Made by a program: the position numbers and the translations under genes | The notes under the pieces: model-generated | Seen by the model: only the letters and a program-made list of their open reading frames with translations | What the model was told of the DNA's origin: nothing | The model's database searches: none | Part shown: in pieces, positions 2,874 through 63,380 of the stretch | Numbering within the stretch: position 1 is the stretch's first letter | Layout of the letters: every line of letters begins with the position of its first letter | Assembly: GCA_964500725.1 (NCBI GenBank) | Contig: CAZCNP010000002.1 | Span: 69,347-133,346, forward strand | Source: an uncultured Gammaproteobacteria bacterium | GTDB lineage: Bacteria; Patescibacteriota; Microgenomatia; Daviesbacterales; UBA10151 | Direction of reading: 5' to 3' | DNA: 64,000 bases

Positions 2874-3956
2874 ATGAAAGCAATTATACCAACAGGTGGG
2901 CGCGGTACCAGAATGCGTCCCTTAACTTTTTCTACTAACAAACATTTTATTCCAGTTGCCAACAAACCCTTAATTTTTTATCCTATTGAAACAATAGCTG
3001 ATGCAGGTATCAAAGAGGTGGCTATAACTTATAACCCAGGAGGTTTGGAAGAAGCAAAAGCATACCTAGGAGATGGCAGTAGGTGGAACTTAAATTTAAC
3101 TTATGTTTTGCAAGAAAAACCAGCTGGACTTGCTAATATTGTCCAAGTTTGTGAGGAGTTTGTTGGTGGAGACTGCTTTGTTTTTCATCTAGGTGACAAT
3201 ATGTTTGTGGATGGAATTGCCGAGCAGGTTGACTATTTTGAGAAGGAAAAACCTAATGGTTTGGTGACAATGATTCATCATAATGAAAATAGGAGGATGG
3301 GAGTGCCTTACTTTAACGATGAAGGCAGGCTTATCAAATATGTAGAAAAACCAGAAAACCCTCCTCATGATTTTGCTGTTCCAGGAGTGTATTTTGGAGA
3401 TAGTAATTTCTTTAAATGTTTTAAAGGCCCGAATGCGCTAAAGCCATCTGCGCGGGGAGAGTATGAAATTCCAGGCGCTTTTCAGTGGTTAATTGATAAT
3501 GGTTTTCGGGTTGATGCTTTGGAATATAAAGGAGTATGGCTGGATCCTGGAAAATTTGATGATTGGATTGATGCAAACCAATACATGTTAAAAAATAAAT
3601 TAAAGGAAAATATTGAATGCAAAGTTGATCCAAGCAGTAAATTACAAGGGACAGTAGCTTTAGGTACAGGATGTAGTGTAGTCAACTCTAAAATCACAGG
3701 TCCAGTCGCAATTGGTGATAATGTGACTATTACCAACTCAGAAATTGGCAGCTATACCTCAATTGCTGGCAATTGTGAAGTAGTAAACAGCAAAGTTTCA
3801 AATAGCGTGCTGATGAATGGGGTAAAGATTTTGGATGTAAGGGAACATCCAGTTGATAATAGTTTAATTGGTACAGATTCTGAAGTTATTGGTAAAGATG
3901 GCAGAGGAGCCACAACATCTCTTTTTGTTGGAGAAAAGTGTAAAATACAAATTTAA
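2874..3956 (+). CDS. rmlA: Glucose-1-phosphate thymidylyltransferase, long form with a C-terminal left-handed beta-helix domain.
   Basis: GGRGTRMRPLT nucleotide-binding signature. C-terminal hexapeptide-repeat region (VAIGDNVTITNSEIGSYTSIAGNCEVVNSKV). Directly precedes rmlB, rmlC and rmlD. Confidence 0.8.
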   Translation: MKAIIPTGGRGTRMRPLTFSTNKHFIPVANKPLIFYPIETIADAGIKEVAITYNPGGLEEAKAYLGDGSRWNLNLTYVLQEKPAGLANIVQVCEEFVGGDCFVFHLGDNMFVDGIAEQVDYFEKEKPNGLVTMIHHNENRRMGVPYFNDEGRLIKYVEKPENPPHDFAVPGVYFGDSNFFKCFKGPNALKPSARGEYEIPGAFQWLIDNGFRVDALEYKGVWLDPGKFDDWIDANQYMLKNKLKENIECKVDPSSKLQGTVALGTGCSVVNSKITGPVAIGDNVTITNSEIGSYTSIAGNCEVVNSKVSNSVLMNGVKILDVREHPVDNSLIGTDSEVIGKDGRGATTSLFVGEKCKIQI

Positions 3957-4960
3957 TGAAACTTCTTGTTACAGGTGGAGCTGGGTTTATCGGATCTAAC
4001 TTTGTGCGTTACTGGATAAAGAATCATCCTGAGGATGAAATAATAATTTTTGATCTCCTAACTTATGCAGGGCATTTAAGTAGTCTGAAAGATGTTGAAA
4101 ATAACCCTAATTATAAATTTATTCAGGGGGATATTACTGATGTAGAAGCTGTTGAGCAGGCTTTGGAAGGTGTTGATATAGTGGTTCATTTTGCAGCTGA
4201 ATCACATGTTGATCGTTCAATTATTGATCCATTGAAGTTTGTAAAAACTAATGTTTTGGGTACTGCAGTTTTATTAAACGCTGCCTTGGATGCAAAAATT
4301 AAAAAGTTTCATCATGTCTCAACAGATGAAGTATACGGAGAGTTGAAACCAAACGATCCTCCATTTGTAGAAAATACACCTTATCAGCCCCGGACACCTT
4401 ATTCAGCGTCTAAGGCAGGATCTGATCATTTAGTGAGAGCCTATTTTGAAACTTATGGTTTGCCGATTACTATTACAAATTGCGCTAATAATTATGGTTT
4501 TTATCATGATCCAGAAAAACTTATCCCTCGGTTTATCACCAATTTTTTAGAAGGGAAGAAGGTTCCGTTGATGGGCAAGGGTGAAAATATTAGGGAATGG
4601 CTACACGCAGAAGATCATGCTGCTGCTATTGATCTTGTTTTGCAAAAAGGTAAAGCAGGAGAGACCTATTTAATTGAAGGGGAAGAGAAAACTAATTTAG
4701 AAATTACTCAAATGTTGCTCAAGATTTTAGGAATGGATGAGTCGATGATTGAATTTGTGGAGCACCGATTAGGGCATGATTTCCGTTATGCCATCAATGG
4801 GGAAAAATTGAAGTCTTTGGGTTGGGAAAGAAAACATAGTTTAGAGGAGGATTTGCCTAAAATAGTTGACTGGTATAAAGAAAACGAGTGGTGGTGGAAG
4901 CCTTTAAAAGAGGGGAGACCTAATATTGATCGGGTTGCCCAAAAATCATATGGAAAATAA
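3956..4960 (+). CDS. rmlB: dTDP-glucose 4,6-dehydratase.
   Basis: TGGAGFIGSNF Rossmann motif, YSASKAGSDHL catalytic YxxxK, ITNCANNYG. Start overlaps the rmlA stop (TAATG). Confidence 0.92.
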   Translation: MKLLVTGGAGFIGSNFVRYWIKNHPEDEIIIFDLLTYAGHLSSLKDVENNPNYKFIQGDITDVEAVEQALEGVDIVVHFAAESHVDRSIIDPLKFVKTNVLGTAVLLNAALDAKIKKFHHVSTDEVYGELKPNDPPFVENTPYQPRTPYSASKAGSDHLVRAYFETYGLPITITNCANNYGFYHDPEKLIPRFITNFLEGKKVPLMGKGENIREWLHAEDHAAAIDLVLQKGKAGETYLIEGEEKTNLEITQMLLKILGMDESMIEFVEHRLGHDFRYAINGEKLKSLGWERKHSLEEDLPKIVDWYKENEWWWKPLKEGRPNIDRVAQKSYGK

Positions 4961-5501
4961 CTACATTAAAAAAACATCTATTCCTGGACTGTTAATTTTA
5001 GAAAGACCAATATTATCAGATGAGCGGGGTTTTTTTAGGGAATTATTCCATAAAGATGAATTAGAAAAAATAAGCGGTATTAAATTTGATGGTGTGCAAA
5101 TGAATCACTCACATTCTGTTTCTGGAGTTATAAGAGGTATTCACGCGGAGCAATGGAATAAAATTATTTATCCAGTTTCCGGAGAGGTTTTTATAGCAAT
5201 AGTTGATATAAGACCAGATTCTCCAACTTTCGGAAAGGTAGAAACCTTTAATGTTGGTGAGAATAACAGAATAGGGCTTTTTATACCAAATGGACTGGCT
5301 AATTCAGTTTGTGTAATAGGAGAAAAGCCGGTGGATTATATTTATTTAGTAGATGCTTACTGGGATGGATCAGATACCAGAGCAATTGCCTGGGATGATC
5401 CTGATTTGCAGATTGACTGGCCTGTTAAAAATCCTGTAATTTCTGAAAGAGACAAAAATAATCCAAAGTTGAGAGAGTTATTTCCGGAGAAGTTTAAATG
5501 A
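4950..5501 (+). CDS. rmlC: dTDP-4-dehydrorhamnose 3,5-epimerase.
   Basis: Cupin-fold RmlC motifs (DERGFFRELF, GIHAEQWNKIIYPVSGEVF, DIRPDSPTFGK). Start moved to the internal Met (MENNYIKK) to limit overlap with rmlB. Confidence 0.88.
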   Translation: MENNYIKKTSIPGLLILERPILSDERGFFRELFHKDELEKISGIKFDGVQMNHSHSVSGVIRGIHAEQWNKIIYPVSGEVFIAIVDIRPDSPTFGKVETFNVGENNRIGLFIPNGLANSVCVIGEKPVDYIYLVDAYWDGSDTRAIAWDDPDLQIDWPVKNPVISERDKNNPKLRELFPEKFK

Positions 5502-6397
5502 AAAAGGTTTTAGTATTTGGTGGCAGTGGTTTAGTTGGTTCTAAATTTATTGATTTATATTCAAACGACTTTGAAATTAAAGCTCCTGATGCATCTTCTG
5601 TAGATATATTAAAAAAAGACCAGGTTGCAAATATAGTAGAGGAATTTAACCCTGATAGCATTATTAATTTTGCAGCTTACACCAATGTTGAAGAAGCTGA
5701 GAAACAAAAAGGGGATAAAGCAGGTATTTGCTATTTAATAAATTCAATTGGAGCAAAGAATGTTGCGGAGATTGCAAAAGAATTTAATAAAAAGTTAATT
5801 CATATCTCAACAGAATATGTTTTTGACGGGACCAAAGATGTAAGTCCGTATACAGAAGAGGACAAACCTAACCCTATTAATTGGTATGGGCAAACAAAAT
5901 ATTTTGGGGAACAGTTTGTTTTAGAAAGCGAATGTTCTGCTGTAATAGTTAGGATATGTATGCCCTATAGCGCATTTTACGAGTTAAAAAAAGATGTTGC
6001 CAGGTTTTTCCTCGAGCAATTAAAGAATGGTAATCAGATAAAAGCAATTGAAGATCAAAGAATCACCCCCACTTTGGTAGATGATATCGCTAATGGTTTG
6101 AGGGTAATAGTTGAATCAAGCGCAAATGGGCTTTATCATGTTAGCAGTATAGATAGTGTAACTCCTTTAGAATTTGCAAAAACCATTGCTGAGACCTTTA
6201 AGCTAAATTATTCACTTATTAGCTCCATTGATTTTGATGAGTATAATAAAGGCAAGCAAGCAAAATTATTGAAATTTTCTTGGTTAAATCCTGCAAAGTT
6301 TGAAGAACAATTTGGGGAAGGAATACTGCATACAGTTGAGCAAGGATTAGTTATTTTTAAAAGAGCTGTTGACGAAAAAGGAAAGAATCAGCTATAG
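5498..6397 (+). CDS. rmlD: dTDP-4-dehydrorhamnose reductase.
   Basis: VLVFGGSGLVGSKF Rossmann motif, INFAAYTNVEEAE, about 300 aa. ATGA overlap with rmlC. The position completes rmlABCD. Confidence 0.8.
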   Translation: MKKVLVFGGSGLVGSKFIDLYSNDFEIKAPDASSVDILKKDQVANIVEEFNPDSIINFAAYTNVEEAEKQKGDKAGICYLINSIGAKNVAEIAKEFNKKLIHISTEYVFDGTKDVSPYTEEDKPNPINWYGQTKYFGEQFVLESECSAVIVRICMPYSAFYELKKDVARFFLEQLKNGNQIKAIEDQRITPTLVDDIANGLRVIVESSANGLYHVSSIDSVTPLEFAKTIAETFKLNYSLISSIDFDEYNKGKQAKLLKFSWLNPAKFEEQFGEGILHTVEQGLVIFKRAVDEKGKNQL

Positions 6398-6407
6398 TAG
6401 ACAAAAT

Positions 6408-7424
6408 ATGGTACAAAGTAAGAGAGCTTTTATAACTGGAGTAAGCGGACAAGATGGATCCTATTTATCAGAGTTCCTTTTAGATAAGGGATATGAAGTG
6501 GCTGGTTTGGTACGCAGAAATGCAGCCTTAGATTTTGGAAACGCTAATGAGATTAAAGATGAGATAAAAATTTATTATGGGGATTTGCATTCTCCGGAAT
6601 CAATTGCCTTAGCATTATTGGATTTCAAGCCGGATGAAATATATAACTTAGCTTCTTTATCATCACCCTTAGGGTCATTTAGTGACAAATTAGGAGCAAT
6701 TATGATTACAGGGGTGGGTGCTTTGCATGTTTTTGAAAGAGCTAAAAGTATTGTTCCAGAGGCAAAAATATATCAAGCATCAACATCTGAAATGTTTGGA
6801 GCCCCTAAGCAAGTTCCTCAGAATGAAGAGACTGTTTTTGCTCCTGCTAATCCTTATGCAGCTGCAAAAGAGTTTGCTCACAGAATGGCAGCTATTGCAA
6901 GGAATGATAAAAATCAACCTCAATTTATTTCCTGTGGAATTTTGTTTAATCATGAAAGCCCAAGACGGGGTTTAAATTTTGTTACTAGAAAAATTACTGC
7001 TGCTGTTGCCATAATTAAGAATGGTCGAAAAGAAGGCATACCACTAAATGAAATAGGCGACCCAATTGTAGAAAACGGCAAAGTGAAATTGGGCGACCTT
7101 AGTGCAAAGCGGGATTGGGGTTTTGCACCTGATTATGTTGAGCTTATGTGGATGATATTACAGCATGAAAAGGCAGATGATTTTGTAGCAGCAACAGGTG
7201 AAATTCATACTGTTGAAGAGTTTGCTAAAGAAGCATTTGCTGTTGTAGGTTTAGACTGGAAAGATCATGTTGAAACTGATTCACATCTTGTGCCACCTGT
7301 ACAAACAGGGCCGCTTTGCGGAGATGCTTCAAAAGCTAAAAAGGTTTTAGGATGGGAACCAAAAACAACTTTTTCCGATTTGGTTAAAATTATGGTTCAT
7401 GCTGATCTGGCAAAATTCTCCTAA
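6408..7424 (+). CDS. gmd: GDP-mannose 4,6-dehydratase.
   Basis: AFITGVSGQDGSYLSEFLL and ILFNHESPRRG are hallmark GMD motifs. Start at the internal Met (MVQSKRAFITG) just after the rmlD stop. Confidence 0.88.
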   Translation: MVQSKRAFITGVSGQDGSYLSEFLLDKGYEVAGLVRRNAALDFGNANEIKDEIKIYYGDLHSPESIALALLDFKPDEIYNLASLSSPLGSFSDKLGAIMITGVGALHVFERAKSIVPEAKIYQASTSEMFGAPKQVPQNEETVFAPANPYAAAKEFAHRMAAIARNDKNQPQFISCGILFNHESPRRGLNFVTRKITAAVAIIKNGRKEGIPLNEIGDPIVENGKVKLGDLSAKRDWGFAPDYVELMWMILQHEKADDFVAATGEIHTVEEFAKEAFAVVGLDWKDHVETDSHLVPPVQTGPLCGDASKAKKVLGWEPKTTFSDLVKIMVHADLAKFS

Positions 7425-7488: not shown

Positions 7489-8676
7489 ATGCAAAAGATA
7501 GTTAGCGTAGTTTTACCCACCTTTAACGAGAAAGCAAATATTGTCAGCACTGTTGAGAAAGTCTTTGAGCAGGAGAATAAACTTAAGGACTATAAAATAC
7601 ATATTGTAATTGCAGATGATATTAGATCTTCTGATGGAACAGAGCAAGTCGCCCAACAATTAGCTAAAAAGTACAAAAGAGTTCATTGTTTGAAAGTGAA
7701 CCCAGGGCTTGGTGTAGGTTTGATATCTGGTCATAAATATGCAATTGAAAAATTTCATCCATATGTTTTAGCTCAACTTGATGCTGATGGCCAGGTGGCA
7801 CCAGATATTTTAGTAAGACTTGTTAAAACCATTGAGCAAGGTTATACCCTGGCAATTGGCTCCAGATTTATCAGTGGGGGTAAAAATCAATTATCTTTTA
7901 TGAGAAGGCTTTTTACTTATGGGGCATCGATTGTCTGCAGGTTGTTTATAGGCCCATGGGATATTAAAGAAGTTACTAACTCTGCCAGAGCGTTTACTCC
8001 TGCTCTTTTCCAAAAAATCAATTTAGAAAGATTGCCTTGGCGTGAGCGGACTTTTATTGTGCAACCTGCTTTTTTGCATGAGGCAATTCTAGCAGGCGCT
8101 AAGTATAAAGAGGTGCCATTGGTATTTAAAGACCGTCTAGAAGGTTATTCTAAAAATAAAGTATTTAACTATACCTATGATATTATTGCCTATTGCTTAG
8201 ATGTAAGATTAAACTCTTGGGGAGTAAAAGTTCCTGTCTATAAGTTATCCAGGAAGGCAAAAACTGTAGTTAAGTTTGCTTTAGTTGGATTTGTTGGAAC
8301 AATGATAGACTTTTTATTTTATAAAATATTTATTAATATGTTCGGTGTTCCTCCAGCAACTTCAAAAGGTATCTCTACAGAGATTGCAATATTAAACAAT
8401 TTTATCTTAAATAATTATTGGACATTTAGGTACCGCAAAACAAAAACAAACATCTGGCAGAAATTGGGAATATTTAATTTAGTAAGTTTAGGTGGGCTTA
8501 TTATAGGTGTTTTAATAGTAAAGTTTTTACATCTTACTTTCGGAGATGGATTTGTAGATATACTTGGGCGTCCGATCGCTTACAATAACTTTTATTTTTT
8601 TGCAACTATTCCTCCAGTTATGCTTTGGAATTTTACAGTTAACCACCTTATTACTTGGCGTAACCAAGAAGACTAG
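7489..8676 (+). CDS. GT2 glycosyltransferase (polyprenyl-phosphate sugar synthase-like) fused to a C-terminal GtrA-like 4-TM domain.
   Basis: N-terminus VVLPTFNEKANI...ADDIRSSDGT is a GT2 fold with a DxD-type motif. The C-terminal 130 aa (FALVGFVGTMIDFLFYKIFINMF...NNYWTFR) match the GtrA family signature. Confidence 0.8.
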   Translation: MQKIVSVVLPTFNEKANIVSTVEKVFEQENKLKDYKIHIVIADDIRSSDGTEQVAQQLAKKYKRVHCLKVNPGLGVGLISGHKYAIEKFHPYVLAQLDADGQVAPDILVRLVKTIEQGYTLAIGSRFISGGKNQLSFMRRLFTYGASIVCRLFIGPWDIKEVTNSARAFTPALFQKINLERLPWRERTFIVQPAFLHEAILAGAKYKEVPLVFKDRLEGYSKNKVFNYTYDIIAYCLDVRLNSWGVKVPVYKLSRKAKTVVKFALVGFVGTMIDFLFYKIFINMFGVPPATSKGISTEIAILNNFILNNYWTFRYRKTKTNIWQKLGIFNLVSLGGLIIGVLIVKFLHLTFGDGFVDILGRPIAYNNFYFFATIPPVMLWNFTVNHLITWRNQED

Positions 8677-9876: not shown

Positions 9877-12072
9877 ATGAAGGTTGATTCTTTATCGGTT
9901 TTTTTTCCATGTATTAATGAAGAGGGTAATATTGAAAGCACTGTCTCGCAAGCTGAGACCGTTTTAAAAAAGCTTAAGCTAAAATATGAAATTATTGTTG
10001 TTGATGATGGCTCAACAGACAAGACAGGGGAGATTGCCGATAAATTAGCGAAAGAAAATTCTCATATTAGGGTGATTCATCATCCGAAAAATTTAGGTTA
10101 CGGCGAAGCATTAAAATCGGGTTTCTATAGCGCTAAATACGACGTTATAGTCTATACAGATGGAGATAGACAGTTTGATTTTTCCGAGGTAACTAAATTT
10201 TTAGAAAAAATTAAAGACTCAGATATGGTAATAGGTTATAGAATAAAAAGGCAAGATTCATTTTTGAGAAAACTATTTGGCAGGGGTTGGAGATTGACGC
10301 TATTTACTTTCTTTGGTTTGACGCTGAAGGATGTAGACTGTGGTTTTAAGATGGTGAGAAAAAGTGTGATTGAAAAAATACCTCATCTTGAATCACAAAG
10401 AGGAGCAATGATTAATGCAGAACTGGCAATTAAGGCAAAAAAGTTTGATTTTAGAATAACTCAAGTAGGAGTAAATCATTATCCTAGATTATCAGGTAAG
10501 CCAACAGGAGCAAATATTCAAGTGATAATCAAATCTTATATAGATTTAGTTAAACTTTGGTGGAAACTAAAAGATGAAAAGCTGCTATTTGCTAGTTTAA
10601 TTTTTGTATTGTTTTTAGCAGGTTTTTTCAGGTTTTACAAAATCTCTGAGTACATGACTTTTTTAGGGGATGAGGGACGTGATGCAATTGTTATAAAAAA
10701 AATACTGACAAATTATGACTTACCTTTGATTGGACCTCCAACTTCCGTAGGTAATATTTATTTGGGGCCGCTTTATTACTATCTAATGACGCTTCCGATG
10801 GCAATTTTCTACCTTAACCCTGTAGCTGCTGCTGGCATGAATGCCTTTTTTGGTGTGGCAACTGTGCTGTTTATTTACTATCTTGGTAAAAACTGGTTTG
10901 GCAGGTTTGCAGGCTTAGTAGCAGCTTACTTATATGCTATATCGCCAGTGACAGTAATCTACTCAAGATCCTCCTGGAACCCCAATCCTACTCCTTTTTT
11001 CTCGCTGCTTACTATTTTTGGATTCTATAAAGCTTATGAGTCAAAAAACTTTAAGTGGTTAATTTTAACAGGGATAGGAGCAGCAGCAGCAATACAAATG
11101 CATTATTTAGCGTTGATTTTACTGCCAATTATTGTAGTTGTTTGGATTAAGGCGTTATTAAGTAATTTAGCAGAGAACAAATATAGGGCCTTTTGGGCAG
11201 GGACAATTCTTGCAGTTGCATCTTTTCTATTCTTGATGTCTCCACTTGTAGTTTTCGATATAAAACATAACTTCTTAAATTATCGAGCAATTACTGAGTT
11301 GTTTTCCAATAATGATACGGCGGTAAGTTTTAATCTATTGAATACATTAAGTAAGATTCCCGCAATATTCAGTAATAATTTGATCGGAAGATACATTGCT
11401 GCAGAGAATAGTTTTTTACAGCAGCTAGTTGCGTTACTGGTTCTGATGCCTCTTGCTGGGGCTACTTATCAAGTATATAAAAACCGCTTGATAAATTTTG
11501 GCTTATGGATATTAAATACCTGGTTGTTAATTGGGGTATTAGGGTTGAGTTTTTATAAAGGGAGTATTTACGATCATTACTTAGGGTTTTTAAATCCTGC
11601 TCCTTTCTTGCTTTTGGGGGGAGTTGTATTTTTGATATCTTTAGCGCCAAAAAGGATTAGATGGCTAGGTAACGGAGGAGTGTTTATAATGCTTATTACT
11701 TTGACAATAGTTAATCTTCAAAAATCTCCACTTTTGAAACCTCCAAACAATCAGTTAATAAGAACTCAGCAAGTGGCTAAGTTTGTTATTAATGAGGCAA
11801 AAGGAGAAGACTTCAATTTTGCCTTGCTTGCTGCTAGGAATTATGATTCAGCATACCAGTATTATCTAGATATTTATGGACATAAACCTCAACAAGTACC
11901 GTTTGAAATTACAGATCAATTATTTGTAGTTTGTGAGGATGCTATATGCCAGCCTATTAATAATGCTAAATATGAGATTGCAGGTTTTGGTTGGGCTAAA
12001 GTGGTAAGCGAGCAGAACATATACGGGGTAAAGGTTTTTAAATTAGTGCATAATCCATCTGGTAAACCATGA
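9877..12072 (+). CDS. Bifunctional fusion: N-terminal DPM1-like GT2 and C-terminal ArnT/PMT-like GT-C membrane glycosyltransferase.
   Basis: Residues 1-230 are GT2 (FFPCINEEGNI, VVDDGSTDKTGEIA, DGDRQFD). Residues about 240-731 are polytopic, with LGDEGRDAIVIKKIL and GPLYYY in the first external loop, typical of ArnT/PMT-type GT-C enzymes. Confidence 0.8.
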   Translation: MKVDSLSVFFPCINEEGNIESTVSQAETVLKKLKLKYEIIVVDDGSTDKTGEIADKLAKENSHIRVIHHPKNLGYGEALKSGFYSAKYDVIVYTDGDRQFDFSEVTKFLEKIKDSDMVIGYRIKRQDSFLRKLFGRGWRLTLFTFFGLTLKDVDCGFKMVRKSVIEKIPHLESQRGAMINAELAIKAKKFDFRITQVGVNHYPRLSGKPTGANIQVIIKSYIDLVKLWWKLKDEKLLFASLIFVLFLAGFFRFYKISEYMTFLGDEGRDAIVIKKILTNYDLPLIGPPTSVGNIYLGPLYYYLMTLPMAIFYLNPVAAAGMNAFFGVATVLFIYYLGKNWFGRFAGLVAAYLYAISPVTVIYSRSSWNPNPTPFFSLLTIFGFYKAYESKNFKWLILTGIGAAAAIQMHYLALILLPIIVVVWIKALLSNLAENKYRAFWAGTILAVASFLFLMSPLVVFDIKHNFLNYRAITELFSNNDTAVSFNLLNTLSKIPAIFSNNLIGRYIAAENSFLQQLVALLVLMPLAGATYQVYKNRLINFGLWILNTWLLIGVLGLSFYKGSIYDHYLGFLNPAPFLLLGGVVFLISLAPKRIRWLGNGGVFIMLITLTIVNLQKSPLLKPPNNQLIRTQQVAKFVINEAKGEDFNFALLAARNYDSAYQYYLDIYGHKPQQVPFEITDQLFVVCEDAICQPINNAKYEIAGFGWAKVVSEQNIYGVKVFKLVHNPSGKP

Positions 12073-54368: not shown

Positions 54369-55196
54369 ATGCAAAGTGCTTTAGTTTCTATTGTCATAAC
54401 AACAAAGAATGAGGTAGATGTTATAGGCAGATTATTAAAAAGTATTAGAAAGCAGTCATATAGAAAAGTTGAAATTATTGTAGTTGATAATAAATCAACT
54501 GATAGAACAAAGGCAATTGCAAAAAAATTTACAAAAAAAATCTATGATAAAGGTTCAGAAAGATCATCACAAAGAAATTTTGGTGCCCAAAAAGCAAAGG
54601 GTAATTATTTACTTTTTATGGATGCTGATATGGAGTTGTCTGAAAGAGTTGTCGAGGCATGTGTCGTTAAGACAGAAGGAAGTGATAAGATTGTGGCGTT
54701 AATAGTTCCGGAAATATCTAAAGGAAAAGGGTATTGGGAAAAAGTGAAGGCATTTGAAAGATCCTTTTATAATATAGCAGGTGATGACATTACAGATGCA
54801 GCTAGATTTTTTAGAAGAGAAGTATTTGAAAAGGCTGGGGGTTATGATAAAGAATTAACTGGTACGGAGGATTGGGAATTAACAGATAGATTAAGAACAA
54901 AAGGATTTTTAATTGATAGAATTGATGCTTCAATTTATCATTATGAAAGGATTCCTAATTTGTATTCGCTTCTTAAGAAAAAATATTATTATGGCTTAAA
55001 AAGCTATATTTATATCAAAAAACATAGTTTACAAATAATGAATCCAAAAATAATATATTTCTTAAGGCCAGTATTTTATAAACAATGGCAAAGAATGATA
55101 AAGCACCCAGTTCTTACTCTGTCTATGTTTTTTATGTTTGTATTAGAGATGATAGCTGGGGGATTAGGGTATCTAAGAGGTAGATATTATGAGTAA
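54369..55196 (+). CDS. GT2 glycosyltransferase.
   Basis: Start at ATG 54369 (MQSALVSIVITTKNE). The track's start at 54354 is a TTG. KQSYRKVEIIVVDNKSTDRT, FMDADME (DxD). Confidence 0.8.
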   Translation: MQSALVSIVITTKNEVDVIGRLLKSIRKQSYRKVEIIVVDNKSTDRTKAIAKKFTKKIYDKGSERSSQRNFGAQKAKGNYLLFMDADMELSERVVEACVVKTEGSDKIVALIVPEISKGKGYWEKVKAFERSFYNIAGDDITDAARFFRREVFEKAGGYDKELTGTEDWELTDRLRTKGFLIDRIDASIYHYERIPNLYSLLKKKYYYGLKSYIYIKKHSLQIMNPKIIYFLRPVFYKQWQRMIKHPVLTLSMFFMFVLEMIAGGLGYLRGRYYE

Positions 55197-57189
55197 GCTC
55201 TCAGTTTTACAAATCTCACCATTCTTTTCACCTAATACAGGAGGGGTAGAAACCCATTTGGATGATTTGATAAAACTTGCAGGAAAAAGAAAGATTAAAA
55301 ATACTGTTATTGCGTATCAGCCCCTAGTGGGAAGCCAAAGAGATAAAGGTTTTGAAAGGAGGGGTAATAGCAAGATCTATAGAGTCAATTGGTTGAGGAA
55401 TATCTTTTATAAGACTGAAAAATATCCCATCCTTCATTTTATTTACCTAACTCCTTATTTAGCTTTAAGGAGTTTAATTATAATGAAAAAGGAAAGTAAG
55501 AAAATAGATATTGTGCATTCTCACGGCATAAATGCTGCAGTTATCGGAGTTTTAATAAAAAAGCTATTTAAGAAACCTTTAGTTGTAAGTCTCCATGTTG
55601 AATTAAATTTACTTAGAACGACATTTTCTACCAGGTTTATTTTGTTTTGTTTAAAAAAGGCAGACTGTATTTTAGTACTGACAAAAAAAACTAAAAAAAA
55701 GCTTATCAAATTAGGAATCGATGAAAGAAAAATTAAGCTTTTTTCGTATTGGGTTGACCAGCAAATTTTTAGTCCGCAAAATAAACAGCAAATAAGAAAA
55801 CAGCTGAAATGGGATATGCATTTTAATGTGCTTTTTGTTGGTCGTTTGGTTATTGAAAAGGGGGTTAAGGTTTTATTAGATGTTGCTAAGAAAATGCCGG
55901 ATATTCAATTTATTTTTGCAGGTACAGGCCAATTGGATAATGAAGTTAGGCAAAGAAGTAGGGAATATAATAATATTATTTACTTAGGAAAGATCTCTAA
56001 TACTAAGTTAACCACTTATTATAATGCTGCCGATGTGTTGGTGGTTCCTTCTCTAATAGAAAATGTAAAAAAAGAATACGAAGAAGGAGTTCCCAGGGTA
56101 ATAATAGAAGCATTATCTTGCGGTTTACCTATTATAGGAACTGATAACGGTGGAATGAAAGAGATAATTTCAGAGAGTATGGTAGGAAAAGTTTGCGAAG
56201 GCAGTTTGGAGGCCATAATTTTTGCTATAAGAGAGATATCAAATTCCAATCAAATGTATCAATACAAAAATAGGGCTAGGCAATATGCTTTAGAACGTTT
56301 TAATGAACGCAACGGTTTAATAATTATAGATACTTATGAAGAATTAAGGTTCCAGGCTTTAATTGAATCTAAATTAAAAGTCCTTTTAGAAAAAGTAGGA
56401 GATATGGCGTTAAAAAGGCGGGCTCACAGTGTAATTGAATCTTTGGACCTACAAAAGGGTAAGAAAATTTTGGATGTTGGTTGCGGGGATGGATTTTACC
56501 TTTATTTGTTATCAAATCTGGGAGTAAAGCTTAAGTTAGTAGGAATAGATTTAGAGGTAAGAGGTTTAAGAAGTGCCAAAAGGAATTTAAGAAAGAAAAG
56601 TATTACTTTTATCCAAGCTGATTTAATGAAGCGGTTACCGTTTGCTTCCAGCAGTTTTGATAATATAATCATGAGTGAAGTTGCAGAACACCTGTTAGAT
56701 GATGTTAAAGGCCTAAAAGAAGTTTATCGAATTTTAAAGCAAGGAGGTAAGCTTTTATTAACAGTGCCTTGTCAAAGTTATCCATTGTTATGGGATCCAG
56801 TAAATTGGATATTGGAACATTTATTTAAGACCCATATTAAAAGTGGTTTTTGGGCAGGTATTTGGAACCAGCATGTGAGGCTTTATTCTTTGAGAGGCAT
56901 TAATACGGTTCTAGAATCATCCGGTTTTAGTATAGAAAAATCCGAGATACAAACTTTCTGGTGCATTCCTTTTAATCACCATATTCTTAATTTAGGAGCA
57001 AGACTTCTAACAAGTAAGCGTTTGCCTAGCTCACTTGAGAATTCTGTTAATAAATTTTCGGAAAGCCCGAATAAAAATATTAATCCAATAAGCCTTTTTT
57101 TTGCAATTATTAATCTTATTGATAAACTGAATAATGTTTTATCAATTAATTCATCAGGAGTTTCAATTTTTGTTAAAGCAAGGAAATAG
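55189..57189 (+). CDS. Fusion protein: N-terminal GT4 glycosyltransferase and C-terminal class I SAM-dependent methyltransferase.
   Basis: Residues 1-390 are GT4 (GVPRVIIEALSCGLPIIGTDNGGMKEII). Residues about 400-600 carry the SAM-binding motif I ILDVGCGDGFY, acidic motif II (GIDLE), and LKQGGKLLLTVP (post-II/III). Confidence 0.8.
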   Translation: MSKLSVLQISPFFSPNTGGVETHLDDLIKLAGKRKIKNTVIAYQPLVGSQRDKGFERRGNSKIYRVNWLRNIFYKTEKYPILHFIYLTPYLALRSLIIMKKESKKIDIVHSHGINAAVIGVLIKKLFKKPLVVSLHVELNLLRTTFSTRFILFCLKKADCILVLTKKTKKKLIKLGIDERKIKLFSYWVDQQIFSPQNKQQIRKQLKWDMHFNVLFVGRLVIEKGVKVLLDVAKKMPDIQFIFAGTGQLDNEVRQRSREYNNIIYLGKISNTKLTTYYNAADVLVVPSLIENVKKEYEEGVPRVIIEALSCGLPIIGTDNGGMKEIISESMVGKVCEGSLEAIIFAIREISNSNQMYQYKNRARQYALERFNERNGLIIIDTYEELRFQALIESKLKVLLEKVGDMALKRRAHSVIESLDLQKGKKILDVGCGDGFYLYLLSNLGVKLKLVGIDLEVRGLRSAKRNLRKKSITFIQADLMKRLPFASSSFDNIIMSEVAEHLLDDVKGLKEVYRILKQGGKLLLTVPCQSYPLLWDPVNWILEHLFKTHIKSGFWAGIWNQHVRLYSLRGINTVLESSGFSIEKSEIQTFWCIPFNHHILNLGARLLTSKRLPSSLENSVNKFSESPNKNINPISLFFAIINLIDKLNNVLSINSSGVSIFVKARK

Positions 57190-57204: not shown

Positions 57205-58260
57205 TTAACCTCCGTAATTTTTAATTGGTGGAGCTACTTTTAACAGTTTTAGAGTTTCATAATAGATGATCATTATAATTGTGTAGTAGCATAAAGGTAT
57301 GTGAATACAATAGATGATTTTTTTACGGGTTAAAAGAAAATATATCGAATCTTTCAAAGGGAATATAAAGCTGAGGGTGTAGGGGATAAATAGATATTTT
57401 TTTAACTTAAACCATAAAGATTGGAATTGGTTACGACCCGAATATCCTGCTTTGCCCATGTCGGTATTGAAGATATTATTCTTAATTCGAGAATTAATTT
57501 TCTTTAAATATTTATTAAGTGAAGCAGATGAATAGTGAACGGTACTATCATTTTTTGTTATAGCAATAAAATCTCCCTTTTTGTTTAATAAATAAAATAA
57601 TAAAGCGATTAAATGAGGATTTCTTTTTAAGTTAGGGAATACCTTCTTTGCATACTTAAGATCGAACATGCATCCTCCAGCCCACAATTCTATCTGTGGG
57701 AGTAATTTAATACTGGATAAATCCAATATGACGAAGTTATTAGTGTTAGAGACAACAGGGTATTTTTCAGACCATTCTCTTACCATAAAGTATTCATTTT
57801 TGGATTCATGATAGATAAAAAAAGAAAAAGGATCTCCAAAATCATTAATATAATAATTTATTGAGGGATAATTTAAGGGTGTTTTATAACCGCCTAATAA
57901 TACTGCCTTAACTTGAGGATTTTTTCTAAAAGCAGAATATTTGATCTTTAAACTATCGCGATTATCGAGAACCTCATCGCTGTCTAAATAGATAATATAT
58001 TTTCCGGTTGCCTTTAGAAAACCGAGATACTTAGCGTAGATTAATTCTACTTTCGAGTTAGTGATAATTTTGCAACGATATTTTTTTGCTATATTAATTG
58101 TTTGATCATTAGATCTACCATCTACTACTAAAATTTCAATTTTATCCTGAGGGTATGACTGCTTCTTTATAGATTCTAAAGTCATTTTGACTGTTTTCTC
58201 TGAGTTAAATGTAGCTACTACGATACTAATAATAGGATATGTATCAAGTTTTTTTATCAT
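57205..58260 (-). CDS. GT2 glycosyltransferase, paralog of the gene at 54369.
   Basis: ISIVVATFNSEKTV, KKQSYPQDKIEILVVDGRSNDQT, YLDSDE (DxD). 351 aa. Confidence 0.8.
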   Translation of the reverse strand: MIKKLDTYPIISIVVATFNSEKTVKMTLESIKKQSYPQDKIEILVVDGRSNDQTINIAKKYRCKIITNSKVELIYAKYLGFLKATGKYIIYLDSDEVLDNRDSLKIKYSAFRKNPQVKAVLLGGYKTPLNYPSINYYINDFGDPFSFFIYHESKNEYFMVREWSEKYPVVSNTNNFVILDLSSIKLLPQIELWAGGCMFDLKYAKKVFPNLKRNPHLIALLFYLLNKKGDFIAITKNDSTVHYSSASLNKYLKKINSRIKNNIFNTDMGKAGYSGRNQFQSLWFKLKKYLFIPYTLSFIFPLKDSIYFLLTRKKIIYCIHIPLCYYTIIMIIYYETLKLLKVAPPIKNYGG

Positions 58261-59345
58261 TTCATTAGGAAATCTACAATAATTTTAGATGGTTGCACTT
58301 TGGTGGTTATAGGGGGATTGATGTATTTGGTATATTCTTGCAGAAAAGACAAAGTAGTTTCTCTGTTGTTTTTACTTATAACTACATTTTTATTAATTCC
58401 TTCTATACGTTCTGTGTTATTTCGTAAAGAGAGCATCGGTAAACCCATATAATAAGCTTCTTCTTGGTTGATGCCGCCATCCGTGGCGATAAATTCGGCA
58501 TTTTTCATAAAATGGACGAATTGGACATAGGGTAAACGTGGAATAACAGTTATACCTTTGGCATTTATCCATGATTTAAATACTTTGGGTTTCATCAATC
58601 TTTTTGTTAAGGTATACATCATCAAGGCGCAGGTTAAGTTTTTATCAGCGTGATCAATTATAAAGTTTAGTATTCGTTGAGTCTGTTTCTTTTGAAAATA
58701 GATATGCTCTTGCCTATGCATAATTAAAACATAGTATTTAGCAATTTTTTTCCGGCGGTCTAATGAACTCTCTTTCTGTAGTGCCCAAAGGTAAGATTCG
58801 AGAAGCGTATTTTGATGAGTATTAACTCTGGTTCCTCTGATATTCTTTAAGTTGTCAAAGGCCCACTTTGTAGGACTAAACAAGATATCGGAGAGATGGA
58901 TGATTATAAACCTGCATATCTCTTCCGGAAAAGGCTCAAAAAAATTAAAAGATCTTAATCCAGACTCTATATGTACTAGTTTCAACCTATATCGGATAGC
59001 AATAATAGCTCCTATTAAAGCAGAGATTGTATCGCCGTGTATTATGAAATAACTATTGCTTTTATTTAAACCTTTGAATTCTTTATTCAAAATGATACAA
59101 GATATGAACAATGTTTTAATAGCCCAGAGAAAGAAATGTATCATTGAAGATCGTTGGGATTTTTCAGCGAGCGCTATATCGGCTCTTAAGATTCCGCAGT
59201 ATTCCGCTAAATCCTCGAAATTTATTCTGTTTTGGCCAGATGTAATAATCTTAAAATGAATACCCCTTGATTTAAGCTCTTTTATTACAGGAGCTAGTTT
59301 AATAAATTCAGCAGTAGTCCCCAGAAAAAAATAGATTTTTTTCAT
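58257..59345 (-). CDS. UDP-N-acetylglucosamine 2-epimerase (WecB/MnaA)-like protein; the middle region is divergent.
   Basis: N-terminus MKKIYFFLGTTAEFIKLAPVIKEL (compare the GTRPExIKxAPV signature). C-terminus ATDGGINQEEAYYMGLPMLSLRNNTERIEG (compare TDSGGxQEEA...LRxxTERPE). Confidence 0.6.
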   Translation of the reverse strand: MKKIYFFLGTTAEFIKLAPVIKELKSRGIHFKIITSGQNRINFEDLAEYCGILRADIALAEKSQRSSMIHFFLWAIKTLFISCIILNKEFKGLNKSNSYFIIHGDTISALIGAIIAIRYRLKLVHIESGLRSFNFFEPFPEEICRFIIIHLSDILFSPTKWAFDNLKNIRGTRVNTHQNTLLESYLWALQKESSLDRRKKIAKYYVLIMHRQEHIYFQKKQTQRILNFIIDHADKNLTCALMMYTLTKRLMKPKVFKSWINAKGITVIPRLPYVQFVHFMKNAEFIATDGGINQEEAYYMGLPMLSLRNNTERIEGINKNVVISKNNRETTLSFLQEYTKYINPPITTKVQPSKIIVDFLMK

Positions 59346-59427
59346 TTTTATACCGTCCGATGTTATTATAATCTATTATTTTTATAAATCCCTAGCTTTT
59401 TCAAAAAAAAGAATAGATAATGTTAAT
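59346..59427. promoter_or_regulatory. Putative divergent promoter region (82 bp).
   Basis: AT-rich gap between the wecB-like gene (-) and the 903-aa membrane protein gene (+, GTG start). Contains TTATAAT. Confidence 0.25.
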
Positions 59428-62139: not shown

Positions 62140-62171
62140 ATATTTATTTTCTAAGCTGATAGAATATACTT

Positions 62172-63380
62172 ATGAAAGATTCTAAGCTTCATTTTTATTT
62201 CTTAGCTCTTGCAGCCAGGGGTAAGGGTTTGTCAGGGAGTGACCGAATTTTTATTGAGCTTTCTAAACGATGGTCGAAAGAAAACCCTGTTGAAATATTT
62301 GTTTGGCAAGAAGGGTTCCAGATGTGCCATAGGCAAGGGTTGGATAAGAGTAGGGTAAAGTTTAATATTGTTTCTTTAAGCAGCTGGGAGAAACATAACT
62401 TTGTTATAAACTACGTCTCGCTTATTATAAAAGGTATTTGGTTGGCATTTAAATTAGATCTAAAAAATGATAAATTTACTATTATTTATTCAGCATCTGA
62501 TTTCTGGATGGATTGTATACCTGGCTGGATATTAAAATGTAGATTTCCTAAAATAAATTGGATTGGAAGCTGGTATTTAACTGCCTCCAATCCAAGGAAG
62601 GGTTTTATAGAGGATCATACGCTAATCAAGAATCCTCAAATTAGTCCTTTTCTCTATTGGTTATCACAAAAACTTGCTTATAATTTAGTCAAAAGAAAGT
62701 CAGATTTTGTCTTTGTTACTAGTGAACCAGATAAATTAAAATTTCCTAATCAACTTAAAGATAAAAGAGCTTTAGCAATAAAGGGAGGTGTGGATTTAGA
62801 AGCCATTAACTTTTGGCAAAAGGAGTTTAAAGGATTACCTAAGATTTATGATGCTGTTTTTCAAGGTAGGTTTCACCCCCAGAAAGGCGTAGTGAAACTT
62901 GTTGATATCTGGAAGATAGTTGTTAATAAGAAACATGATGCTAAATTAATAATGATAGGAGATGGACCTTTAATGCAGAAGGTGCAAAATAAAATCAGTA
63001 AGCTTAAATTGGAAAATAACGTTACTTTAGTGGGATATAAATATGATGGAGAGAAAAAATATAAGATTTTCCATCAAACTAAAATAGTTGTTCATCCGGC
63101 AATTTATGATTCCGGCGGTATGGCTGCAGCGGAAGCAATGGCTTGGGGTTTGCCAGGGGTTAGTTTTAATCTGGAAGCGTTAAAAACATATTATCCAAAG
63201 GGTGTACTTAAGGCTTCTCTGGGAGATGAAAAGGAATTTGCAAAGTTAGTAATTGAGTTGTTGGATAATCCGAAACTTTATCAAAAAATAGCTACAGAAG
63301 CAAAAGATTTAATATTGGGGAACTGGGATTGGAATAAAAGGGCAAGGGAAATTGTTGCATTAATCAAAAATAATCTCTAG
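62172..63380 (+). CDS. GT4 (GT-B) glycosyltransferase.
   Basis: C-terminal IYDSGGMAAAEAMAWGLPGVSFNLEALKTYYP (E-x7-E-like GT4 motif). 402 aa. Confidence 0.8.
   Translation: MKDSKLHFYFLALAARGKGLSGSDRIFIELSKRWSKENPVEIFVWQEGFQMCHRQGLDKSRVKFNIVSLSSWEKHNFVINYVSLIIKGIWLAFKLDLKNDKFTIIYSASDFWMDCIPGWILKCRFPKINWIGSWYLTASNPRKGFIEDHTLIKNPQISPFLYWLSQKLAYNLVKRKSDFVFVTSEPDKLKFPNQLKDKRALAIKGGVDLEAINFWQKEFKGLPKIYDAVFQGRFHPQKGVVKLVDIWKIVVNKKHDAKLIMIGDGPLMQKVQNKISKLKLENNVTLVGYKYDGEKKYKIFHQTKIVVHPAIYDSGGMAAAEAMAWGLPGVSFNLEALKTYYPKGVLKASLGDEKEFAKLVIELLDNPKLYQKIATEAKDLILGNWDWNKRAREIVALIKNNL

Follow-up and report, generated by a model that had tools for sequence, protein, structure and literature searches.

A glycosylation mega-locus dominated by GT-C membrane transferases, with two oligosaccharyltransferase-like proteins, in a Microgenomates bacterium

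Introduction

What would a bacterium build with some twenty membrane-embedded glycosyltransferases encoded side by side? The question is raised by a 64,000-nucleotide stretch of a metagenome-assembled genome (the window), for which the original prediction described a 60-kb glycosylation mega-locus with about 20 GT-C-like, about 10 GT2 and 5 GT4 enzymes. Its gene content, two of its membrane proteins and the pathway that they may form are considered here in turn.

Results

Gene content and contiguity

The ORF listing, together with Pfam scans of 46 ORFs, places 43 genes between positions 2874 and 63380 (Table 1; genes are named by their first coordinate). This block is 99% coding, has 35 of its genes on the + strand, and shows frequent overlaps of 1-4 nt and a largest intergenic gap of 104 nt. 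The predicted counts were reproduced, with 20 polytopic GT-C candidates that occupy 35,136 bp (58% of the bases), ten GT2 (one being the N-terminal part of 9877) and five GT4. The locus is thus a confirmed glycosylation mega-locus dominated by GT-C enzymes. The rmlA gene is confirmed, as had been claimed; rmlBCD are present as well, together with genes for a carbamoyltransferase, a Gmd-like dehydratase, a WecB-like epimerase and a fusion of GT4 with a methyltransferase. In effect, families for all the proposed decorations (rhamnose, 6-deoxyhexose, carbamoyl and methyl) were matched in Pfam/NCBIfam scans.

In agreement with the prediction, the scans of the window ORFs gave no match to transposase, phosphoglycosyltransferase, Wzy, Wzz or ligase families, but the supposed lack of export did not hold, since two flippases of the Wzx/MOP type are encoded. 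Nor does the locus stop at 63380, as had been proposed: glycan genes run on for at least 10 kb on the same contig. The ORF left open at the window end has 298 aa in full, with further glycan genes downstream, and a 1147-aa paralogue of 59428 lies beyond the window.

Because the source is a metagenome-assembled genome, the locus might be a chimera, or its polytopic proteins might in reality be transporters; five of the 20 lack any direct Pfam match and two more fall under Pfam thresholds. Nevertheless, eight of eight proteins spanning 8.6-63 kb (8673, 22535, 25984, 41261, 50710, 52537, 59428 and 62172) share the same longest contig, of 277,668 bp, and local gene order is reproduced in independent Logan contigs. 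GC content and skew vary smoothly along the window, the core gene order is repeated in many of 78 related species loci, and all models tested take the GT-C fold, with a transporter fold in none. A chimeric assembly is unlikely, and an artefact of either kind is already effectively refuted.

Table 1. Genes and other features of the locus, with the evidence for each assignment
Position	Strand	Feature	Evidence
2874..3956	+	RmlA, long-form glucose-1-phosphate thymidylyltransferase	TIGR01208 328.5 bits (cut-off 320); NTP_transferase
3956..4960	+	RmlB-like NDP-sugar 4,6-dehydratase	PF16363 256 bits; Epimerase 227 bits
4926..5501	+	RmlC, dTDP-4-dehydrorhamnose 3,5-epimerase	PF00908 E=7e-46
5498..6397	+	RmlD, dTDP-4-dehydrorhamnose reductase	PF04321 E=3e-63
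6369..7424	+	Gmd-like NDP-hexose 4,6-dehydratase (6-deoxyhexose supply)	PF16363 308 bits, full length
7489..8676	+	GT2 fused to GtrA/DPMS transmembrane domain; polyprenyl-P-sugar synthase-like	PF00535 + PF04138
8673..9827	-	Probable small GT-C, 8 TM	PMT_2 E=0.0034; LA_3751/3752 putative GT E=0.003
9877..12072	+	GT2 (ArnC/PgfS-like synthase) fused to PMT_2 GT-C	PF00535 E=1e-29; PF13231 E=2e-12
12069..12806	+	GT2, polyprenyl-P-sugar synthase-like (PgfS/ArnC/Dol-P-hexose transferase-like)	Pfam + NCBIfam
12862..14385	+	GT-C, PMT_2 type	PF13231 45 bits; DE at 37
14392..16092	+	GT-C, YfhO/PTPS_related type, paralogue 1 of 4	PF10131, PF09586; DD at 36
16043..17737	+	GT-C, YfhO/PTPS_related type, paralogue 2	PF10131 65 bits
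17709..19388	+	GT-C, YfhO/PTPS_related type, paralogue 3	PF10131 36.7 bits
19355..21058	+	GT-C, YfhO/PTPS_related type, paralogue 4	PF10131 31.9 bits
21063..22535	+	Wzx/MOP-family flippase 1, 13 TM	PF13440 188 bits; PF01943 78 bits
22535..25987	+	Long OST-like GT-C	Similarity to 25984, predicted fold
25984..27972	+	OST-like GT-C	Predicted fold
27969..29594	+	GT-C, PMT_2 type	PF13231 45 bits
29598..30497	+	GT2, cytoplasmic elongating type	PF00535
30498..31298	+	GT2	PF00535
31299..32375	+	GT4	PF00534 86 bits
32372..33487	+	GT-C, GT87/PIG-M-like	Via orthologues
33480..34949	+	GT-C, PMT_2 type	PF13231 54 bits
34963..36588	-	GT-C, PMT_2 type	PF13231 35 bits
36575..37990	-	GT2, 5 C-terminal TM; AglJ/PpgS/Dol-P-hexose-transferase-like synthase	PF00535
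38028..39698	+	GT-C, PMT/PMT_2 type	Pfam scan
39695..41251	+	GT-C, PMT/PMT_2 type	Pfam scan
41261..42880	-	GT-C, divergent PMT_2/GT39-like	Via orthologues; DE at 76
42952..44550	+	GT-C, PMT_2 type	PF13231 61 bits
44540..45328	+	GT2	Pfam scan
45234..46382	+	GT4	Pfam scan
46325..47554	+	GT-C, PIG-V (GT76)-like	PF04188 44.6 bits
47542..48828	+	Wzx/MOP-family flippase 2, 12 TM	PF13440 55.7 bits; PF01943 52 bits
48734..49594	+	GT2, related to 12069; possible synthase	Pfam scan, paralogue comparison
49591..50721	+	GT4	Pfam scan
50710..52521	-	GT-C, unannotated family	Predicted fold
52537..54249	-	NodU/CmcH-type carbamoyltransferase	PF16861 237 bits; PF02543 153 bits
54354..55196	+	GT2	Pfam scan
55189..57189	+	GT4 fused to SAM-dependent methyltransferase	Pfam scan
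57205..58260	-	GT2	Pfam scan
58257..59345	-	UDP-GlcNAc 2-epimerase, WecB-like	PF02350 141 bits
59428..62139	+	Probable GT-C, 11 TM, large outer domain, C-terminal anchor	AftD GT-C E=0.004
62172..63380	+	GT4	Pfam scan
63392..64000	+	298-aa ORF, 5' part; frame open at window end	Weak DUF218 match

GT-C transferases and their GT2 partners

In the HMM searches that the original prediction had called for, 13 of the 20 GT-C candidates exceeded Pfam gathering scores (families PMT_2/PMT, PTPS_related/YfhO and PIG-V); five more are backed by orthologues or predicted fold, and the last two, 8673 and 59428 (hhalign 86% to the YfhO group), are probable members. The expected acidic motifs were found in the first loop, as DE in nine proteins and DD in five; most of the remaining ones have one conserved Asp (for instance, NYDG in 8673). 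The paralogues are old: they share 22-40% identity with one another (30-40% among the four of the YfhO type), whereas each has orthologues 40-76% identical in other species.

Orthologues were also informative for divergent members. PF09594 (GT87) is matched by 15 of 20 orthologues of 32372 (best 1.4e-9) and PIG-M by 7 of 20, and H24-x-D26 is invariant. The 41261 protein itself has no Pfam match, while many of its orthologues carry PF13231/PF02366 and ArnT-like names; its start codon is probably over-extended by about 35 codons. For 50710, only 12 homologues were found, the sole named one being from Daviesbacteria. The unannotated members take the GT-C fold in predicted models, and ALG12, ALG9, ALG3 and ALG6 are strong structural matches of the models.

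The predicted pairing of DPM1-like GT2 with GT-C enzymes is also borne out. Five of the GT2 genes look like polyprenyl-phosphate-sugar synthases (ArnC/PgfS/AglJ/PpgS/Dol-P-hexose transferase), and they lie beside or fused with GT-C genes at five places: 7489/8673, the 9877 fusion (ArnC-like match 81 bits; DE at 265), 12069/12862, 36575/34963 and 48734/47542/46325. The best NCBIfam matches of 7489 are AglJ/PgfS, and 36575 matches TIGR04182 AglJ (76 bits) and PpgS (62 bits), all under the cut-offs.

Two oligosaccharyltransferase-like proteins

Two of the GT-C paralogs of the original prediction, 22535 and 25984, are oligosaccharyltransferase (OST)-like by predicted fold. The longer protein, 22535, consists of a signal anchor, an extracytoplasmic DUF3863-like domain of about 470 aa, whose family profile matches PDB 3lm3_A (E=5e-6), and an OST-like module at residues 505-1150 that is 31% identical to 25984 over 640 aa (hhalign probability 100%). 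In Foldseek comparisons, the best 13 PDB matches were all STT3/AglB/PglB (E 6.8e-9 to 1.6e-7), followed by DPY19, a protein C-mannosyltransferase (E 2.8e-7), and then, after a more than 1000-fold drop, by ArnT (1e-3), AftD and PMT. The C-terminal domain corresponds to the globular unit that is specific to OSTs, and such OST-type domain matches are absent in the control GT-C 50710. This structural evidence comes from AlphaFold models rather than solved structures. Judged by hydropathy and positive-inside charge, the C-terminal domain and the DUF3863-like domain lie outside the membrane, as does the conserved HDGxWH loop.

At the sequence level, the 25984 family has no Pfam or NCBIfam match, and Pfam STT3 is matched by no OST-like family member, even at E<=10. 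No OST was found with the family profiles against PDB sequences or by phmmer with the segment at the WWDYG position, and a clear DXD motif pair was not found in these proteins. In 138 relatives, the residues at the WWDYG position follow the pattern [WY]-x-[DS]-T-[AGS]-Y; like WWDYGY...D of PglB, the WYDTGY...D587 segment of 25984 carries an Asp at +18. On the models, both proteins look like oligosaccharyltransferases, which would make them the en-bloc transfer step.

In 44 of the 78 species loci, a Wzx gene lies immediately 5' of an OST-like gene, and a fusion of Wzx with an OST-like protein is encoded on one contig. However, MOP-family transporters are also able to flip polyprenyl-P-monosaccharides (PMC11127046; AglR, PMC3871713), so a Wzx neighbour is no proof of an oligosaccharide donor. 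This bears on a rather improbable alternative, in which no oligosaccharide is moved as a whole and independent systems, each made up of a GT2 synthase, a flippase and a GT-C, attach single sugars, donated by polyprenyl-P-monosaccharides, to proteins or glycans. In that case the OST-like proteins would transfer monosaccharides in the manner of DPY19/PMT, and the cargo of the Wzx proteins would be P-linked monosaccharides, as it is for MATE/MOP and AglR-type flippases. The position of DPY19 just behind the OSTs, the five synthase-like GT2 genes adjoining GT-C genes, and the finding of no priming phosphoglycosyltransferase in scans of the window and its continuation are consistent with it. By contrast, it leaves five GT4 and five ordinary cytoplasmic GT2 enzymes without a lipid-linked acceptor to elongate, and the core Wzx > OST-like > ... 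> GT2 GT2 GT4 resembles an assemble-flip-transfer module.

Discussion

A possible pathway

The reading that we favour, to which we give about an even chance, is a surface-glycosylation super-operon with archaeal/ER-like logic and protein as the most likely acceptor. By family assignment, dTDP-rhamnose (RmlABCD), a 6-deoxyhexose (Gmd-like) and ManNAc (WecB-like) are supplied in the cytoplasm. As there is no phosphoglycosyltransferase, an AglJ-like GT2 may put the first sugar on polyprenyl monophosphate, as happens in Haloferax; the five ordinary GT2 and five GT4 enzymes would then build the glycan on this carrier, where the carbamoyltransferase and methyltransferases may modify it. The Wzx-type 21063, a flippase by family assignment, would carry the lipid-linked glycan across the membrane, and the adjacent 22535 and 25984 would, judging from their modelled fold, pass it to an extracytoplasmic acceptor, most likely surface proteins such as S-layer protein or pilins. 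Finally, the five DPM1/GtrB/ArnC/AglJ-like synthases may make polyprenyl-P-monosaccharides, which the GtrA-like domain of 7489 and the second Wzx (47542) would flip and with which about 17 further GT-Cs (PMT_2, YfhO, GT87/PIG-M, PIG-V and unannotated) would extend and branch the glycan outside the membrane.

Comparison with known systems

Among the closest known systems is the Agl pathway of Haloferax volcanii (AglJ/G/I/E, flippase, AglB, AglD/AglR/AglS), in which the glycan is begun on Dol-P by AglJ, with AglB as OST, AglR as a Wzx-like protein and AglS as Dol-P-Man transferase (PMC3871713). Shared features are the clustering of the genes, a DPM1-like GT2 able to start on polyprenyl monophosphate, so that a phosphoglycosyltransferase is not needed, GT2/GT4 enzymes for elongation in the cytoplasm, a methyltransferase, a flippase of the Wzx kind and, here as predictions, an STT3-fold transferase and a last addition from polyprenyl-P-sugar outside the membrane. 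For both 36575 and 7489, AglJ heads the NCBIfam matches, although below cut-off. Nevertheless, this locus is bacterial, its extracytoplasmic GT-Cs number about 17 against one, and its two adjacent OST-like paralogues, one with a DUF3863-like domain, have neither the STT3 profile nor the WWDYG, DXD and DK motifs. With Campylobacter PglB, AglB and STT3 (GT66) they share the predicted overall fold and the C-terminal globular unit, but sequence homology is undetectable, the motif varies across the family, and they have three extra N-terminal TM helices or the 470-aa N-terminal outer domain.

The eukaryotic ER N-glycan pathway (ALG3/9/12/6/8/10, DPM1/ALG5, STT3) likewise combines cytoplasmic assembly, flipping, an STT3-fold transferase and several GT-C extensions supplied by polyprenyl-P-sugars; the GT-C families here are PMT_2, YfhO, GT87 and PIG-V rather than ALG types, and no orthology is implied. 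Bacterial three-component systems (GtrA/GtrB/Gtr*, ArnC/ArnT, CsbB/GtcA/YfhO, PgfS/PgfM; PMC11127046) join a GT2 synthase, a flippase of small or MOP type and a GT-C, as in the five adjacent pairs or fusions here, but they have one GT-C each, rarely a few, whereas one operon-like block here holds 20 in the window and one beyond.

The mycobacterial arabinogalactan/LAM set (AftA-D, EmbA-C, PimE, MptA/B, Ppm1) also devotes many GT-Cs and lipid-P-sugar donors to one envelope product, and a GT87/PimE-like member is present here. In a possible, if somewhat unlikely, alternative, the locus would make a lipoglycan or a non-protein glycopolymer of the envelope, similar to arabinogalactan/LAM, a secondary cell-wall polymer or teichoic-acid glycosylation, with the OST-like proteins as glycan-to-lipid/wall ligases or processive GT-C polymerases and the other GT-Cs branching the polymer. 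Against this, OSTs and DPY19, which modify proteins, are separated by more than three orders of magnitude from Aft/Emb/ArnT in Foldseek, the C-terminal domain fits the OST-specific unit, and PMT_2/PMT are chiefly known for protein O-mannosylation (Pfam description). The mycobacterial genes lie in several scattered loci and act on glycan/lipid acceptors, whereas those described here are contiguous and stand beside an OST-like enzyme and Wzx.

Conservation across Microgenomates

As predicted, the organism, which is uncultured and ultra-small, is a CPR bacterium; named homologues are from Candidatus Daviesbacteria. A high number of GT-C genes is not confined to this genome: across 54 loci, each of about 22 kb, in other species of Microgenomates, the median is 10 GT-C-like ORFs (range 5-14). 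The synteny comparison that had been proposed revealed the same core order in many of the 78 GTDB species loci. Judged by gene order, other genomes have this locus as well, and the block is conserved throughout the Microgenomates lineage.

Organization and extent of the glycan block

The original prediction placed a glycosylation locus of 60 kb at 2874-63380 and held that almost every gene in it is glycan-related. In a listing of the 46 large ORFs, searched against Pfam, all 43 genes of this interval are indeed related to glycan synthesis, and the predicted numbers of GT2 enzymes (10), GT4 enzymes (five) and polytopic membrane proteins (20, covering 58% of bases) were right. The genes are tightly packed: 99% of the block is coding, 35 of the 43 genes lie on the + strand, the widest gap is 104 nt, and overlaps of 1-4 nt are common. 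Both GC content (0.30-0.38) and GC skew are smooth across the window, and scans of the whole 64 kb (1-64000) gave neither a tRNA gene nor a match to Rfam at gathering threshold.

The right-hand boundary, by contrast, does not stand, as the locus runs on past it, both in the remainder of the window and on an independent contig, L005 (see the table). An assembly artefact such as a chimera is excluded: independent assemblies agree, there is synteny with related loci, and eight proteins encoded from 8.6 to 63 kb are each reported with the same 277,668-bp contig.

Some gene starts and fusions deserve separate mention. The first-start call of 41261 looks over-extended, its orthologues being about 35 residues shorter. 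The true starts of 45234 and 48734 probably lie downstream, as suggested by the 95-nt overlaps between 44540-45328 and 45234-46382 and between 47542-48828 and 48734-49594. Two genes of the block are fusions. Recurrence of the GT2-GT-C fusion at 9877 was suspected, and alignment coordinates showed no orthologous fusion of this kind within 10 kb on either side in 78 related loci.

Features of the locus and its flanks. Genes and proteins are named by their start coordinate in the window; L005 is an independent contig.
Feature	Coordinates or start	Strand	Remarks
Peptide chain release factor	433-1500	-	left flank; glycan-unrelated
117-aa ORF, TsaD-like fragment	1486-1839		matches the TsaD profile (264 positions) over positions 30-84 only; glycan-unrelated
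CAP/SCP-domain protein	1805-2719		hydrophobic segments at both termini; directly 5' of rmlA; glycan-unrelated
PMT_2/PMT proteins, above gathering score	9877 (C-terminal part), 12862, 27969, 33480, 34963, 38028, 39695, 42952
PTPS_related/YfhO proteins, above gathering score	14392, 16043, 17709, 19355
PIG-V protein, above gathering score	46325
Three-component set	7489, 8673		7489 is GT2 with a GtrA domain
Three-component set, gene fusion	9877-12072		GT2 synthase fused to PMT_2 GT-C
Three-component set	12069, 12862
Three-component set	36575, 34963
Three-component set	48734, 47542, 46325
Wzx/MOP flippases	21063, 47542
Long OST-like protein	22535-25987	+	N-terminal domain at 22601-24019
OST-like protein	25984-27972	+
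Polytopic protein	41261-42880	-
Gene fusion	55189-57189		GT4 fused to SAM methyltransferase
298-aa ORF	from 63392	+	weak DUF218 match
Continuation of the locus	63392-64000; L005:11221-21209
Epimerase	L005
Sugar C-methyltransferase	L005		Methyltransf_13/14
FkbM methyltransferase	L005
Two GT2 enzymes	L005
One more methyltransferase	L005
1,147-aa paralogue of 59428	L005		29% identity; first loop GGGD where 59428 has GGGE

The polytopic GT-C proteins

The proposal that the polytopic proteins are GT-C glycosyltransferases is borne out by profile searches, in which 13 of the 20 score above Pfam gathering thresholds. For several of the others the evidence is less direct. For instance, 41261 has no Pfam match itself, and many of its 79 homologues have PMT_2/PMT matches and ArnT-like names; 32372 falls just under the Pfam threshold, and its orthologues match GT87 (15/20) and PIG-M (7/20). 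Weak GT-C matches are seen for 8673 (PMT_2, E=0.003) and 59428 (AftD, E=0.004), the latter reaching 86% in hhalign against the YfhO group. The family of 50710, a GT-C protein of unannotated family, reaches 80% against the PMT_2/YfhO groups of the window, a comparison that was mostly uninformative for the other unassigned proteins taken singly. Across the polytopic set, GT-C identity is carried by either a curated family profile or a match to a GT-C structure. None of the predicted models is transporter-like, and the alternative that these are transporters is rejected.

Hydropathy predicts 7-14 transmembrane (TM) helices in all 20 proteins. The expected acidic motifs of the first loop hold for most of them, with DE, DD or DxD in 14; a further five have a single conserved Asp, and 59428 has GGGE. 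Their family membership and the five adjoining genes for synthase-like GT2 enzymes suggest that the donors would be polyprenyl-phosphate-linked sugars. Within the window, paralogues are 22-40% identical to one another, less than the 40-76% that each shares with its orthologues elsewhere; thus, the expansion of GT-C genes is ancient and has been maintained. Three or more unannotated GT-C families emerge from this set: that of 25984 and 22535, that of 50710 and, probably, that of 59428.

An oligosaccharyltransferase-like pair

The neighboring genes 22535 and 25984, which immediately follow the Wzx gene 21063, encode paralogues, 25984 being 31% identical to the last 650 residues of 22535. The predicted model of 25984 (pLDDT 87.5, pTM 0.90) has a GT-C fold, in keeping with the original prediction, which had nevertheless missed that the fold is not a generic one. 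In a Foldseek search of the PDB, the best 13 matches are all oligosaccharyltransferases (OSTs), including yeast STT3 (6.8e-9), AglB (7.7e-9), STT3B (2.5e-8) and PglB (1.6e-7). These are followed by the protein C-mannosyltransferase DPY19 and, after a drop of more than 1000-fold, by ArnT, AftD and PMT. A common CC unit within the C-terminal globular domain is a feature of OSTs (PMC3703281), and the pair, judged by predicted fold, has both this domain with its CC unit and the multi-spanning N-terminal domain. Judging from hydropathy and positive-inside charges, 25984 has its N-terminus outside, together with its C-terminal domain and the loop bearing HDG; the 470-aa domain that follows the signal anchor of 22535 is outside too. 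The latter domain (residues 23-495) is conserved in all long-form members of the family and has no significant match in Pfam. Only its family profile reaches PDB 3lm3_A ('uncharacterized protein'), at E=5e-6, and faint matches to DUF3863 (E ~0.2) occur for this type of domain in two homologues only.

The sequence motifs are less conventional. The defining motifs of OSTs are WWDYG, a pair of DXD motifs and DK/MI (PMC3703281). At the WWDYG position, 25984 reads WYDTGY and 22535 reads YDSTAY, the consensus over 138 relatives being [WY]-x-[DS]-T-[AGS]-Y. In 25984, this site (W569-Y-D-T-G-Y) is followed at +18 by D587, a spacing equal to that of WWDYGY...D in PglB, as checked in PDB sequences. A candidate for the DK/MI motif, D587-x-x-Q590-x-x-I593-[ML]594, is conserved, but it follows the WWD-like site by just 18 residues and has Q replacing K. 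Invariant or nearly invariant in the family are HDGxWH (D135), NYH...D171, R191, GGE247S..FW..Q..NPP, D373-R374, T572, Y574, D587 and Q590; the invariant acidic residues D135, D171 (HDGxWH and NYH...D171), E247 (GGES) and D373 stand singly rather than in two DXD motifs.

Every link by sequence between this family and known OSTs failed. A search of 43 members with Pfam at E<=10 gave no match to STT3, and 10 divergent representatives and nine long-form members likewise gave none; no OST was found by NCBIfam searches, by comparing family profiles with PDB sequences or by phmmer with the WWDYG-like segment. Consequently, the resemblance of the motif is only suggestive. Given its non-canonical motif site and the lack of a match to STT3 or OST sequences, the pair is called OST-like by its predicted fold and is kept out of GT66.

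The same motif bears on what the pair might do. If the product were a wall polymer or lipoglycan, the OST-like proteins would act as ligases or polymerases, and both the non-canonical acceptor motif and the similarity to AftA/AftD would favor such a role. This explanation is less likely, however, in view of the gap in Foldseek scores between OSTs and ArnT, AftD and PMT and of the OST-type C-terminal domain.

Synthases, flippases and a possible pathway

Neither the window nor the 10 kb that follow gave a match to a Pfam family for a priming phosphoglycosyltransferase, Wzy, Wzz/PCP, ligase or export channel, an absence that had been anticipated for the locus. Two Wzx flippases had been overlooked: 21063 (PF13440, 188 bits, 13 TM helices) and 47542 (55.7 bits, 12 TM helices; cut-off 23). 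Of the set that marks a Wzy-dependent O-antigen or capsule locus, only Wzx is present.

Five of the GT2 enzymes are synthase-like (7489, the N-terminal part of 9877, 12069, 36575 and 48734). Their best matches are ArnC, PgfS, AglJ, PpgS and Dol-P-hexose transferases, all under the equivalog cut-offs. The suggested pairing of DPM1-like GT2 enzymes with GT-C proteins is observed throughout, as each of the five adjoins a GT-C gene or is fused to one. Thus, GT2 synthases, as called by best-match similarity, flippases and GT-C proteins occur together in the manner of three-component glycosylation, the logic of which has been reviewed (PMC11127046). A locus made up purely of monosaccharide systems of this kind is nevertheless improbable, because it leaves no role for the GT4 and ordinary GT2 enzymes.

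These other enzymes, five GT2 and five GT4, are ordinary cytoplasmic transferases and therefore need a lipid-linked acceptor. The same situation, that is, cytoplasmic transferases without a phosphoglycosyltransferase, is solved in Haloferax. There, the glycan begins with the action of AglJ on dolichol monophosphate, AglG, AglI and AglE extend it, and the product is flipped and then transferred by AglB (PMC3871713). The last mannose is then added from Dol-P-Man by AglS, with the Wzx-like AglR helping to flip Dol-P-Man (PMC3871713). On this precedent, it is proposed that the glycan would be assembled on polyprenyl phosphate, that Wzx may flip the lipid-linked product, that the OST-like pair would transfer it, and that the remaining GT-C proteins could then elaborate it extensively outside the membrane.

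Distribution in Microgenomates

More than 600 close homologues of 25984 lack a Pfam domain; those with names are called 'hypothetical protein' and come mostly from Candidatus Daviesbacteria. A family profile searched against 1.84 billion representatives gave at least 1,756 matches (clusters at 50% identity), with 927 at E<=1e-30. Members come in forms of about 560, 650 and 1,000-1,160 aa. Many of the shortest (e.g., P0241, P0253 and P0261) begin near profile position 97. The three additional TM helices at the N-terminus of 25984 are missing from them, so that they open in the canonical GT-C manner, with a TM helix followed by the catalytic loop.

With one genome per GTDB species, 268 matching stretches were obtained; the names given in the records are Daviesbacteria, Woesebacteria, Shapirobacteria, Blackburnbacteria and Microgenomates. 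Some representatives with the title 'uncultured Gammaproteobacteria', 'Candidatus Bathyarchaeia archaeon' or 'Clostridia bacterium' have a typical Microgenomates locus (L008, L009, L043, L075 and many others), and such titles are probably placeholders or reflect mis-binned contigs.

Gene order was compared in 78 loci, their ORFs being annotated by BLAST against the proteins of the window. In many, including those titled Daviesbacteria, the order is two to four YfhO genes, Wzx, the long OST-like gene, the shorter OST-like gene, PMT_2, two GT2 genes, GT4 and a variable number of PMT_2 genes; rearranged variants occur in loci titled Woesebacteria, Shapirobacteria and Blackburnbacteria. An OST-like gene lies directly downstream of Wzx in 44 of the 78 loci, and loci of about 22 kb contain 5-14 GT-C-like ORFs, the median being 10.

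At one locus (L086:1868-6787), a Wzx flippase and a long OST-like protein are joined in one ORF of 1639 aa. Its surroundings are the usual ones, with a YfhO-like gene upstream and a 668-aa OST-like gene downstream. Found on one Logan contig only, this fusion could be a frameshift or an assembly error.

Biological implications

The enzyme classes described here are known; what is new is the scale, the conservation across the lineage and the cryptic OST-like family. No treatment of CPR taxa together with OSTs (PglB, AglB or STT3), GT-C proteins or mannosyltransferases was found in the literature, nor any prior work on OSTs or GT-C expansion in CPR bacteria in full-text searches. Tentatively, this Microgenomates family, which is without a Pfam or NCBIfam model and annotated as hypothetical, may represent a very divergent branch of the STT3/AglB/PglB fold. 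Together with Wzx and a record number of about 20 GT-C proteins, it might serve a pathway of the ER or archaeal style, in which a glycan is built, flipped, transferred en bloc onto surface proteins and elaborated. Since the Ser/Thr-pocket motif is altered, the acceptor specificity is possibly new as well.

Should the OST-like pair truly glycosylate proteins, the locus would represent a new system of protein glycosylation in bacteria, which would bear on the origin of the archaeal and eukaryotic OST and of ALG-type GT-C enzymes and would offer new enzymes for glycoengineering. A conservative reading still leaves at least three unannotated GT-C families and the densest GT-C cluster found described, on a subject for which no earlier literature was found.

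Most biosynthesis has been lost in CPR bacteria, whose genomes are about 1 Mb in size. The locus devotes at least 70 kb to one glycan system, which is common to Daviesbacteria, Woesebacteria, Shapirobacteria and Blackburnbacteria, and corresponds to about 6-7% of a genome when set against complete Woesebacteria chromosomes of 0.98-1.08 Mb. That so much sequence is kept in reduced genomes suggests that the surface glycan is probably central to the envelope or to an episymbiotic lifestyle.
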